DNA of 64,000 nucleotides from the NCBI RefSeq assembly GCF_003018255.1, contig NZ_CP027440.1; one strand, written 5' to 3'. The notes under the pieces were generated by a model, which was not told the DNA's origin, did no database searches, and saw nothing but the letters and a program-made list of their open reading frames with translations. The translations under genes were made by a program, and so were the position numbers. This DNA is from Escherichia coli. Its GTDB lineage: Bacteria; Pseudomonadota; Gammaproteobacteria; Enterobacterales; Enterobacteriaceae. Below, piece after piece: positions 34,737 through 39,707 of this stretch (positions are counted from its first letter, which is position 1; every line of letters begins with the position of its first letter).

Positions 34737-35435
34737 TTAAAATCTGGCGCTAACCCCCATCGTATACAGATAGTCGCTATTGTTAGTGGTATTTTCTGCC
34801 TGAGATAGCGCAGCATAGGCAGCAATATTTTGATTGAGCAACATATCAGCGCCTACGGTGACATCCAGCCAGTTGCCGTTCTGGTTTGTCGCCGTCATCC
34901 GGCTCAGGCCTGATTGCGCCTTCCAGATATTCTCGCCAAATTGCTGGTTATAGCTGATTTGCGCCCAGGGTCGGAGATCGCCAAGCCGGGAGTCAACACG
35001 CCAGCCTAAGGTACTCACGCTGGCATGCCATAACGGATCGGCCAGCGTGGTAGTACTGTCGCCAAACTCGTTATACATCGAGGTGGTTGTGCCATCGTAA
35101 TGTAATGCCGCGACCGGGCCGGTTGTAACCTGCTCATATAAAGGAAAATTCCAGCCCATACTCATACTGCTGGTCACATCCACAGGAGTTTCTTCCGCCA
35201 GATTGACTTCCAGTCCCAGCGCCCTTTGGCTACTTTGAATACGTTGCGACAAAATATCGTTGTAATCAGGTTGATGATCGCTATCCCAGGTGTAACGCTC
35301 TGTGGAATGTCCGGGTTGCGTATCAACGATATATTCTTGTTGCCAGGCGTAAGCTGTGTTGAGAAAAAAGGCACTGATTACCACACTCGCCAGCAGGCTT
35401 AGCTGCCAGCGACCACCGCTTTTTTTTATGATCAT
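34737..35435 (-). CDS. yhjY: outer-membrane autotransporter-beta-domain-like protein YhjY
   Basis: Track ORF starts at GTG; ATG at 35433..35435 gives MIIKKSGGRWQLSLLASVVISAFFLNTAYA... (232 aa) with signal peptide and C-terminal F. Confidence 0.85.
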   Translation of the reverse strand: MIIKKSGGRWQLSLLASVVISAFFLNTAYAWQQEYIVDTQPGHSTERYTWDSDHQPDYNDILSQRIQSSQRALGLEVNLAEETPVDVTSSMSMGWNFPLYEQVTTGPVAALHYDGTTTSMYNEFGDSTTTLADPLWHASVSTLGWRVDSRLGDLRPWAQISYNQQFGENIWKAQSGLSRMTATNQNGNWLDVTVGADMLLNQNIAAYAALSQAENTTNNSDYLYTMGVSARF

Positions 35436-35592
35436 TAACACGACTCCAGGGAAGAGCCGAATTCGGCAATATTATTGTCATTGTATGAAGGATATCGGGC
35501 ATAGTAGCCCTGTATTAAATATTGACTTTTTCACCGATGCGTCAAGAAAAGCGGCTGAAATTTTTACGATCGGGTACATAGCGAGGGAAAGT

Positions 35593-36156
35593 ATGGAACG
35601 TTGCGGCTGGGTGAGTCAGGACCCGCTTTATATTGCCTACCATGATAATGAGTGGGGCGTGCCTGAAACTGACAGTAAAAAACTGTTCGAAATGATCTGC
35701 CTTGAAGGGCAGCAGGCTGGATTATCGTGGATCACCGTCCTCAAAAAACGCGAAAACTATCGCGCCAGCTTTCATCAGTTCGATCCGGTGAAGGTGGCTG
35801 CAATGCAGGAAGAGGATGTCGAAAGACTGGTACAGGACGCCGGGATTATCCGCCATCGCGGGAAAATTCAGGCAATTATTGGTAATGCGCGGGCGTACCT
35901 GCAAATGGAACAGAACGGCGAACCGTTTGCCGACTTTGTCTGGTCGTTTGTCAATCATCAACCACAGGTGACACAAGCCACAACGTTGAGCGAAATCCCC
36001 ACATCTACACCCGCCTCCGACGCCCTATCTAAGGCACTAAAAAAACGTGGTTTTAAGTTTGTCGGTACCACAATCTGTTACTCCTTTATGCAGGCATGTG
36101 GGCTGGTGAATGATCATGTGGTTGGCTGCTGTTGCCATCCGGGAAATAAACCATGA
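35593..36156 (+). CDS. tag: DNA-3-methyladenine glycosylase I
   Basis: ORF 35356..36156; internal ATG at 35593 gives MERCGWVSQDPLYIAYHDNEWGVPETDSKKLFEMICLEGQQAGLSW... (187 aa). Confidence 0.93.
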   Translation: MERCGWVSQDPLYIAYHDNEWGVPETDSKKLFEMICLEGQQAGLSWITVLKKRENYRASFHQFDPVKVAAMQEEDVERLVQDAGIIRHRGKIQAIIGNARAYLQMEQNGEPFADFVWSFVNHQPQVTQATTLSEIPTSTPASDALSKALKKRGFKFVGTTICYSFMQACGLVNDHVVGCCCHPGNKP

Positions 36157-36593
36157 TTCGGGAAGTGCAACATTCAGAACTCCCCGCGATCCTCGAACTG
36201 TGGCTGGAAAGTACAACCTGGGGGCATTCCTTTATAAAATCGAGTTACTGGCGTGACTGCATTCCGCTGGTGCGCGATGCGTATCTTGCCAACGCGCAAA
36301 ACTGGGTCTGGGAAGAAGACGGTAAGCTTCTCGGTTTTGTCAGCATTATGGAAGGCCGATTTCTGGCTGCAATGTTTGTCGCACCGAAGGCCGTCAGACG
36401 CGGTATTGGTAAGGCGCTAATGCAGTATGTGCAGCAGCGCCATCCCCATCTGATGCTGGAGGTTTATCAAAAAAATCAACCGGCGATAGATTTTTACCAG
36501 GCGCAGGGTTTTCACATTGTCGACTGCGCATGGCAGGATGAAACCCAACTACCCACCTGGATTATGAGCTGGCCGGTGGTTCAAACGCTGTAA
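36153..36593 (+). CDS. yiaC: GNAT-family N-acetyltransferase YiaC
   Basis: 146-aa [31 protein letters not shown]...; ATGA overlap with the tag stop. Confidence 0.88.
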
Positions 36594-38895
36594 GTGTCAG
36601 TTCCGGACCGTTGTATTTTTCCAGCCATGCCAGCGCCGTATTACCCGCACAGCCATTCCCCAGCCGCGAGCTGGGGAGATCTTTGGTCAGCACGTTCACT
36701 GCGCCGTTTTTACAAATACCGTCAGCGGTTAAATCCAGATCCGGCCATGCCCCTTCGTGAATGCAAATCACGCCAGGTTTAATTCCCTCGCTAATGACTG
36801 CCCCGGCAAGAATTTGCCCGCGTGCGTTCCACAGCCGAACAGTATCGCCATCTTGTATGCCGCGCGCCTGAGCATCGTCAGGATGAATGGTGACAGGCTC
36901 ACGGTTTGCCACCGCGTACAATTCGCGCAGAGAACTGTAATTCAGCTGGCTGTGCAGACGATGTGCCGGATGAGCAGAAAGTACCTGCAACTGTTCCGGT
37001 TCGGCATTGCCCTGCCATTCGTCCGGCTCCAGCCACATTGGATGCCCAGGGCAATCCGGATAAGCGTAATCGGCAATACGCTGCGAGAAGATTTCAATCT
37101 TGCCGCTGGCGGTTTTTAATGGATGCGCCTGCGGATCGCGGCGAAAATCGGCGAAGCGAATAAACCGCTCGCTGTCCGGGTTTTCCGGCATCTCAATTAA
37201 CTGGTTGGCTTGCCAGAACTCAGCAAATGGCGGCAATTCAACCTGCTGGCTTGCCCCGCGTTGCCGGGCAACGTTATAAAACGTTTCCAGCCATTGCAGC
37301 TCACTTTTTCCTTCCGTAAACCGCGCATAGCCGCCCTTCTCCCAACGTTCACTTAACTCGGCAAAAACATCAAAATCATTACGCGCTTCATAGCGTGGCG
37401 GCACCACTTGCTTCATCGGCACCAGATGCTGATTACTGTAATCGCCGGTCATGGTGAGATCATTACGCTCAAAAGAGGTGGTCGCAGGCAGAACGATATC
37501 CGCGTGTTTCGCCGCCGCCGTCCAGAAGCATTCAGAGATCACCACCAGCTCCGGTTTTTGCCAGGCACGGATCAGGCGATTGGTATCCTGATGATGAGTA
37601 AAGTTGGCACCACCCGCCCACCAGATAAAACGAATATCCGGGAAATGTCGGTCCATACCGTTATGTTGATATGCGCCACCGGGGTTTTCCAGTGCTTCAA
37701 CAATGCGGGCAACAGGGATTTTATCCACCGCATCGGTGCCGCCAGGCAAACTGCCCTGCATGGAAGAGAGCACCGCAGCGCGGCGCGTGGGGTTACCACC
37801 ATTGGCAAAATGGTAAGAAAGACCAAAACCGCCGCCGGGTGTGCCGATTTGCCCCAACATTGCCGCCAGCGTGACGAGCATCCAGTGTTTTTGCTCACCA
37901 AACTGTTGGCGCTGCATTCCCCAGCCTGCCATCAGCATGGTTGTATTTTGGTGGAAAATAGCCGCCAGCTCGCGGATTTTCGCTGCGCCAACACCACAAA
38001 TCTCTGCCGCCCATTCGGCGTTTTTCGCTATACCATCACTCTCGCCCAGCAAATAAGAGGCGAAGACGGCATAACCTGTGGTGCAACGCGCCAGAAACGC
38101 TTCGTCGTGCCAACCATTTTCCACCAGCGTATGGGCGATCCCCAGCATCAACGCAACATCGGTGCCCATGTGTGGTGCCACCCACTCCATTTTATCGCCA
38201 AAGAAATCGATGGTTTCCGATCGCATTGGATCAATGCAGATCAGCTTTTTCCCGCTGTCACGCAGTGCGGAAAAGTAAGAAAGCCCCTGCTCATCGGATG
38301 CATTCCACGCAATTTTCAGCGTATTGAGTGGGTTAGCACTCCACAGCACCATGACATCGCTATGTTCCAGCACCAGCGGCCAACTGGTTTGCTGTTGATA
38401 AACTTCGCTGCCACCCACGACATACGGCATGATCGCCTGTGCCGCGCCGGTCGAATAATCCCCCAGATGCCCAGTATAACCGCCTGCCAGCGCCATATAG
38501 CGTTGTAATAATGTCGAGGCCTTATGCAGCACGCCGTTTGAACGCCAGCCGTAGGAACCAGCAAAAATCGATGCCGGACCATAAGCCTCACGAATGCGTT
38601 TATGTTGATGGTGAATAAGCTCCAGCGCCTCATCCCAACTCACGCGAACAAATTCATCCTGCCCACGAATGCCTTGCGGATTTTCCGGTGACGCAAGAAA
38701 GCCTTTGCGCACCATTGGAAATCGCACCCGCGTATTGCTGTGAACCTGGTCGCGAACCGCGCTCTGCAAGGAGTTTTCCATTCCTGTGGCTAACGCGCCA
38801 CGCGAGCTAAACACGGTTTCGCCGTCGGTTTCAACCAGCATAGGCCCCCAGTGGGCGGCAGTCAGAACGGAATATCGTGAGGATGAGTTGGCCAA
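36562..38895 (-). CDS. bisC: biotin sulfoxide reductase (molybdopterin oxidoreductase)
   Basis: 777-aa [39 protein letters not shown]...; its 3' end overlaps the yiaC 3' end by 32 nt (convergent). Confidence 0.92.
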
Positions 38896-39047
38896 ACCGA
38901 AGACTCCTGAAAGGTTAGATGTATTGAGCAGTTAAATATTACTTACAAATTTCCGAGTATTCCCAGGAATAATCTTCATGTTCACGCGGCATAATCTCCC
39001 GCCACAGAACCCGTGGCAAAGAATAAAAAGGTTATTAAGGATTAACA

Positions 39048-39707
39048 ATGAAGAAACGTGTTTATCTTATTGCCGCCGTAGTGAGTGGCGCTCTGGCGGT
39101 ATCTGGCTGTACAACTAACCCTTACACCGGCGAACGCGAAGCAGGTAAATCTGCTATCGGCGCAGGTCTGGGCTCTCTCGTTGGCGCGGGTATTGGTGCG
39201 CTCTCTTCTTCGAAGAAAGATCGCGGTAAAGGCGCGCTCATTGGCGCAGCAGCAGGCGCAGCTCTGGGCGGCGGCGTGGGTTATTACATGGATGTGCAGG
39301 AAGCGAAGCTGCGTGACAAAATGCGCGGCACTGGTGTTAGCGTAACCCGCAGCGGGGATAACATTATCCTCAATATGCCGAACAATGTGACCTTCGACAG
39401 CAGCAGCGCAACCCTGAAACCGGCGGGCGCTAACACCCTGACCGGCGTGGCAATGGTACTGAAAGAGTATCCGAAAACGGCGGTTAACGTGATTGGTTAT
39501 ACCGACAGCACGGGTGGGCACGACCTGAACATGCGTCTCTCCCAGCAGCGTGCGGATTCCGTTGCCAGCGCGTTGATCACCCAGGGCGTGGACGCCAGCC
39601 GCATCCGTACTCAGGGCCTTGGCCCGGCTAACCCAATCGCCAGCAACAGCACTGCAGAAGGTAAGGCGCAAAACCGCCGTGTAGAAATTACCTTAAGCCC
39701 GCTGTAA
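39048..39707 (+). CDS. yiaD: OmpA-family lipoprotein YiaD
   Basis: 219-aa ORF with lipobox (LAVSGC) and a C-terminal OmpA-like domain (NMRLSQQRADSVASAL...NRRVEI). Confidence 0.9.
   Translation: MKKRVYLIAAVVSGALAVSGCTTNPYTGEREAGKSAIGAGLGSLVGAGIGALSSSKKDRGKGALIGAAAGAALGGGVGYYMDVQEAKLRDKMRGTGVSVTRSGDNIILNMPNNVTFDSSSATLKPAGANTLTGVAMVLKEYPKTAVNVIGYTDSTGGHDLNMRLSQQRADSVASALITQGVDASRIRTQGLGPANPIASNSTAEGKAQNRRVEITLSPL

Follow-up and report, generated by a model that had tools for sequence, protein, structure and literature searches.

The convergent overlap of yiaC and bisC in Escherichia coli: 3' coding ends shared by two genes across Enterobacteriaceae

In convergent overlapping gene pairs of prokaryotes, the coding sequences of two independent protein-coding genes, located on opposite strands, run into each other at their 3' ends. 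Of the 663 adjacent gene pairs that overlap in E. coli, 75 are convergent (Huvet & Stumpf 2014). The genes yiaC and bisC form a pair that does not differ in kind from these, and the origin of such overlaps by stop codon movement fits the shifting position of the yiaC stop. Its specific features are the fixed position of the bisC stop codon and an arrangement in which the conserved end of each protein lies under the tolerant tail of the other.

Two further systems are close to this locus. The classical excludon has neighbouring transcripts that overlap through long untranslated regions and genes whose expression is mutually exclusive, whereas in yiaC-bisC the coding sequences themselves overlap. 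The second system is Rho-dependent termination with transcript ends protected by a hairpin. At Rho terminators, a trimmed end is expected to lie close to a hairpin and to lack a U-tract.

The DNA analysed is a window of 64,000 nucleotides from E. coli (contig NZ_CP027440.1, assembly GCF_003018255.1), whose features at the yiaC-bisC junction are collected in Table 1. A first, sequence-only reading had proposed that the two coding ends share 32 nucleotides, placing about ten terminal codons of each gene on the same DNA. Sequence, ORF list and RefSeq annotation agree with both statements. For each gene the stretch comprises two nucleotides of one codon, nine sense codons and the stop; it runs from codon 137 (last 2 nucleotides) to codon 146 and stop in yiaC, and from codon 768 (last 2 nucleotides) to codon 777 and stop in bisC. 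The first codon positions of the two genes face each other, and position 2 of either gene faces position 3 of the other. With this phase no site of the overlap is silent in both genes.

Table 1. Positions of the features of the yiaC-bisC junction in the window
Feature	Position	Strand	Basis or remark
ATGA, overlap of the tag stop and yiaC start	36153..36156	+	sequence, ORF list, annotation
yiaC CDS (GNAT N-acetyltransferase, 146 aa)	36153..36593	+	ORF list, Pfam, RefSeq, AlphaFold
Hairpin in the bisC 3' UTR, inside the yiaC CDS	36413..36441	-	just upstream of the mapped bisC 3' end
bisC CDS (biotin sulfoxide reductase, 777 aa, TTG start)	36562..38895	-	ORF list, Pfam, homology, RefSeq
Dual-coding stretch, 32 bp	36562..36593	both strands	sequence, ORF list, per-site conservation
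bisC stop TAA	36562..36564	-	complement of Ile137 bases 2-3 and Met138 base 1 (A-TTA-TG)
YiaC tail, residues 141-146, after the last beta-strand	36573..36590	+	AlphaFold, distant homologues
yiaC stop TAA	36591..36593	+	spans bisC codons Leu768/Thr769; position varies between genera
tag-yiaC read-through antisense to bisC, up to the Rho-dependent region	36594..36845	+	published Rho table
Terminator-like hairpin	36656..36678	+	consensus scan; 63 nt past the yiaC stop, within bisC codons

The overlap was already known from the reference annotation and from a catalogue of overlapping transcripts. The RefSeq annotation of MG1655 (yiaC 3713652-3714092, bisC 3714061-3716394) gives the same overlap as the window; the 32 nucleotides are identical in the two sequences and the sole mismatch in the 76-nt junction is at position 36557. 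Coordinates are equivalent and the overlap identical in the RefSeq annotation of the nearest genome, JNE23-011. A random frame stays open for 10 further codons with a probability of (61/64)^10, or ~0.62. The length of the overlap needs no special cause; what exceeds chance is its conservation.

Gene yiaC is the second gene after tag, whose annotated end lies 3 nt past the yiaC start. The ATGA motif shared with tag and the 3' overlap with bisC make yiaC a gene that overlaps its neighbours at both ends. The tag-yiaC ATGA layout is the same in Dickeya (locus L085, 4001-4004). At the other extremity of bisC, the TTG start is at 38893-38895 on the minus strand and leucine is the first codon in most of 64 orthologues (L004-L081), a non-ATG start that appears to be conserved; several Enterobacter-like loci have 'HAL...' at the beginning of bisC and may use another start. 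The ORF list holds also an antisense open frame of 366 aa inside bisC (37408-38508, plus strand) that is unannotated in RefSeq and shows no sign of being a gene.

Both reading frames belong to recognizable proteins. YiaC matches the Pfam family Acetyltransf_1 (E-value 5e-16), and BisC matches Molybdopterin and Molydop_binding. An AlphaFold model of BisC built from 34 close orthologues had a mean pLDDT of 47 and was unusable; the BisC tail was assessed instead by sequence homology to solved structures. Residues 7-775 of the 777 in BisC align with solved DMSO/TMAO reductases, and the terminal 'ltafepp' pairs with 'vtvfkqp' (7l5i) and 'vtvfdtp' (1eu1). This alignment up to residue 774-775 implies that the BisC carboxyl terminus has its ancestral length.

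The sequence-only reading had itself raised the scenario that the true stop of one gene lies earlier, a sequencing error or mis-called stop codon having lengthened one of the frames. Conservation excludes it, and the residual probability of such an artefact is negligible. The junction was searched with an 801-nt query in 5,426 complete E. coli genomes, requiring at least 80% of the query length, and the overlap is kept in the 5,421 genomes that match. All 5,421 have an identity of 95% or more over the 76-nt junction, and 3,204 of them reach 99% or more; yiaC and bisC are both annotated at this place. The 32 nucleotides found in MG1655 recur in thousands of independently determined complete genomes. 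The amino acid sequences of both tails are conserved across genera, the BisC tail is homologous to solved structures as described above, and protein lengths are stable (146-148 aa for YiaC, 776-777 aa for BisC). The Pfam matches, the BisC homology up to residue 775 and the tails and lengths conserved in 79 species identify both open reading frames as real up to their annotated stops.

Over the region 36100-36900, the window has matches of 99% or more in two complete E. coli genomes (99.9% for the best, JNE23-011), and the remaining genomes match at 95-99% except one at 80-90%. The few matches of at least 99% indicate that the lineage of the window is sparsely sampled.

The range of the arrangement was established by scanning a YiaC alignment against one genome per GTDB species. 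This yielded 80 loci from 17 genera, all of them Enterobacteriaceae, including Escherichia, Salmonella, Citrobacter, Klebsiella, Enterobacter, Raoultella, Kluyvera, Kosakonia and Shimwellia. In 79 of the 80 species loci, bisC is convergent with yiaC and the two genes overlap. When the window is counted with these 79 loci, 42 sequences have an overlap of 32 nt, 34 one of 38 nt and 4 one of 23 nt. The variation comes from the yiaC stop, which is the moving one. The bisC stop is fixed within the Ile137-Met138 codons of yiaC, being the complement of A-TTA-TG or A-TCA-TG. Its three sites across 80 sequences are T in 80, T in 53 or C in 27, and A in 80, reading TAA or TGA on the minus strand.

The exception is Intestinirhabdus alba (L064, 4410-4600), in which an internal deletion of bisC leaves codons 3-47 and 764-777. 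The deletion is a natural one, and the yiaC tail is unaltered. Strain E. coli BE104 (L083, 3966-4239), for which the source is given as 'not applicable', retains bisC codons 1-51 and 766-777, probably as the result of an engineered deletion. The last 12-14 codons of bisC are kept in both deletions, which thus spare the stretch shared with yiaC. In Escherichia sp. MOD1-EC7003 (L003, 3524-5809) the bisC frame derived by tblastn has 762 aa compared to 777, a difference in frame length that suggests a short internal deletion.

The conservation of the two protein ends is not distributed evenly along the shared DNA. The AlphaFold model of YiaC has a mean pLDDT of 93.8, its last strand covers residues 133-140, and residues 141-146 form a coil of low pLDDT. 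Alignments with YiaC homologues of 35-43% identity stop at residue 140-141, beyond which tails vary in length and sequence; Met138 and Trp140 are kept in at least 90% of these homologues. The folded core of YiaC accordingly ends at Trp140. The tail of 6-8 residues that follows is the antisense reading of the conserved BisC sequence LTAF(D/E)PP. Conversely, the conserved W-I-M-x-W of YiaC lies opposite the variable last three residues and the stop of BisC, and the conserved L-T-A-F-D-P-P of BisC lies opposite the YiaC tail, which reads QADQTP in most genera. In both proteins, the conserved end is thus overlaid by the tolerant tail of the partner.

The third positions of the yiaC tail codons, which are second positions in bisC, are nearly invariant. 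Synonymous variability is reduced in bisC too: codons 769-774 have a mean third-position entropy of 0.66, compared to 1.35 (four-fold) and 0.76 (two-fold) in conserved bisC codons elsewhere (P = 5e-4 by resampling against a background on the same species tree, which is not a formal phylogenetic model). Asp772 is encoded by GAT in 58 of the 58 sequences that have Asp at this position, and Phe771 by TTT in 60 sequences and TTC in 4. The yiaC third positions and the bisC entropy are signs of dual constraint on the shared stretch. The lower synonymous variability at 769-774 implies that the YiaC tail, or another feature located there, adds constraint to that exerted by BisC.

Within Escherichia (window and L003-L007) the tail of YiaC is not uniform: PVVQTL is confined to E. 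coli and Escherichia sp. MOD1-EC7003, E. albertii has PADQTP, and the remaining species of the genus have QADQTP, as do most genera. The E. coli lineage has therefore replaced four of the six YiaC tail residues at the cost, in BisC, of the conservative change D772E. Four replacements in one protein for a single conservative change in the other suggest that BisC is the dominant partner. The synonymous constraint in bisC suggests in turn that the YiaC tail is not entirely free. The bisC constraint and the four replaced residues in E. coli are opposing indications on this point.

The nearest relatives of YiaC outside Enterobacteriaceae are found in Dickeya and in a JGI genome, which keep the tag-yiaC pair. 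No BisC-like sequence is present within 4 kb downstream of tag-yiaC in either of them; the next gene, after ~500 nt, is ghrB for Dickeya, whereas the JGI genome has yiaD. The Dickeya tag-yiaC pair without a downstream bisC would place the formation of the junction in or before the ancestor of the Enterobacteriaceae genera surveyed, and it is there that bisC probably came to adjoin tag-yiaC. The polarity may also be the opposite one, with loss of bisC in Dickeya and the other outgroup rather than gain in Enterobacteriaceae.

The Dickeya YiaC tail starts with TGG CAG GAT CAA (W-Q-D-Q; L085, 4410-4456), which is close to the TGG CAG GCG GAT CAA (W-Q-A-D-Q) of Enterobacteriaceae, a stretch that in the latter also encodes A-F-D-P-P of BisC. 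This likeness may be due to chance or to microhomology at the ancestral junction.

According to the sequence-only reading there was no room for a terminator between the two genes, so their transcripts must overlap and might interfere. The overlap of the transcripts is backed by the listing of the pair in a published excludome, by a mapped bisC 3' terminus and by a Rho termination region. The absence of space for a terminator stands as well, yet the transcripts do end, each inside the partner gene. These 3'-end positions come from K-12 data and were carried to the window by coordinate transfer.

On the minus strand, a 'distant primary' terminus of bisC was mapped at MG1655 position 3713903 with a 3' UTR of 159 nt, and the sequence upstream of it folds with -22.2 kcal/mol (PMC10687069, TRS, Supplementary Data 3/4). 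It corresponds to position ~36404 of the window, which is within yiaC and 158-159 nt beyond the stop of bisC. The end lies ~10 nt after the stable hairpin at 36413-36441 and has no U-tract, which is a likeness to the Rho-dependent ends protected by hairpins; the bisC end differs from that system in that no documented Rho dependence was found for it. The hairpin pairs in 84% of the cells over 80 species, compensatory changes are found at 3-4 pairs, and its covariation of 0.214 compares to at most 0.132 in slid controls. Stricter counts of pairs and of pair types are not above shuffles. The covariation is suggestive of a conserved RNA structure. The hairpin may be a selected RNA element, in which case to consider the junction as a pure by-product would be too simple.

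On the plus strand, a Rho termination region is reported at MG1655 position 3714344 under the label 'antisense bisC', with a score of 7.3 and a p value of 5.5e-14 (Adams et al. 2021, PMC7815308, Supplementary file 2). Read-through near this region rises on bicyclomycin treatment, as in the hairpin-protected Rho system; the read counts there are low, with 23-112 reads per 800-nt window (PMC7815308). The region maps to position 36845 of the window, 252 nt past the yiaC stop. Neither yiaC nor bisC is present in the table of dominant Term-seq 3' ends of the same study, and the sole entry is that in the table of Rho regions (PMC7815308). Taken together, the two mapped ends give transcription units that overlap by ~440 bp (window ~36404-36845).

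An alternative would be a shared bidirectional intrinsic terminator, located within coding sequence near the junction and ending both transcripts. The candidate is the plus-strand hairpin at 36656-36678, which is GC-rich, is followed by AUCUUUGG and is kept in most species; being nearly palindromic, it could form on both strands. The consensus scan that detected it gave counts of promoters and terminators at chance level, with 6 terminator-like elements found and 5.5 expected. Its paired fraction across species is 87% of the cells, and slid controls are equally high. As a yiaC terminator the hairpin gained no support, its covariation being no better than that of these controls. RNAalifold fails to recover it, and found no conserved structure in either 3' flank over 80 species (-1.3 and -3.3 kcal/mol). 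Folds of the single sequences are not more stable than shuffles (z-scores of -1.0 and 0.06), and Rfam gave no match at an E-value up to 1 on either strand of 35000-39500. The mapped ends are also elsewhere: the plus-strand end behaves as Rho-dependent and is ~170 nt beyond the hairpin, and the bisC end lies across the junction, at ~36404. With no intergenic space, no conserved structure and ends mapped at other positions, a bidirectional terminator is very improbable.

The overlap of neighbouring transcripts that characterizes excludons is thus found for yiaC and bisC, as known from the literature. The ExcludonFinder publication includes the pair among 165 convergent excludons of MG1655 and defines membership as transcript overlap in 50% or more of the 58 RNA-seq samples (NAR 2025, PMC12288877). 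The conservation of the locus could then be that of a functional excludon, a selected device by which bisC and tag-yiaC repress each other, the proposed means being collision of the polymerases and cleavage of the RNA duplex by RNase III. Such a device would fit the presence of the pair in that list, the higher synteny that, according to the same paper, excludon pairs show in general (PMC12288877), the transcript overlap of ~440 nt implied by the mapped ends and the arrangement kept in 79 of 80 species. However, when coding sequences overlap, the overlap of their transcripts is near-automatic and gives no information on regulation. Dual coding is by itself a sufficient explanation for the conserved arrangement, as any rearrangement would leave both proteins shortened or changed. 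Read counts near the Rho region are low. The search of the literature and datasets found no experiment in which expression of yiaC or bisC affects the other gene, and no report of anti-correlated expression, RNase III dependence or a phenotype for the pair; the validation of double-stranded RNA with p19 is described in the ExcludonFinder paper as not feasible for convergent pairs (PMC12288877). A regulatory role of the yiaC-bisC overlap is possible, but a mutually repressive device as the reason for its conservation is unlikely.

A more specific proposal, in which the overlap and the hairpin at 36413-36441 together form a selected antisense switch that renders the sulfoxide-repair gene bisC and the tag-yiaC operon mutually exclusive across Enterobacteriaceae, is a quite unlikely one. 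If true, it would be dual coding that has locked this switch in position from the origin of the family onwards.

The yiaC-bisC junction is a real overlap between the tails of two unrelated protein-coding genes, very probably an ancient by-product of genome compaction kept by dual coding. The junction would have formed when bisC arrived downstream of the tag-yiaC operon. It would then have been held because any change in the shared stretch hits both proteins. The bisC stop, built from the complement of the Ile137-Met138 codons, stays in place in all 79 species with bisC next to yiaC. In the published K-12 maps the mRNA of either gene ends within its partner, with no terminator between the two. 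Where yiaC and bisC are expressed together, the convergence of polymerases and the complementarity of the RNAs could reduce the output of both.

The additions made here to what was known are modest. They are the conservation of the overlap across the family with a frozen bisC stop, and the location of the conserved end of each protein under a tolerant tail. To these are added the outgroup lacking bisC and a combined view of the published 3'-end data. The pair has little discovery value, and serves teaching as a clean, well-conserved illustration of DNA shared by two genes. In practical terms, recoding or deleting the 3' end of either yiaC or bisC alters the partner gene. The junction is also a case of one stop codon frozen by conserved residues of the partner protein.
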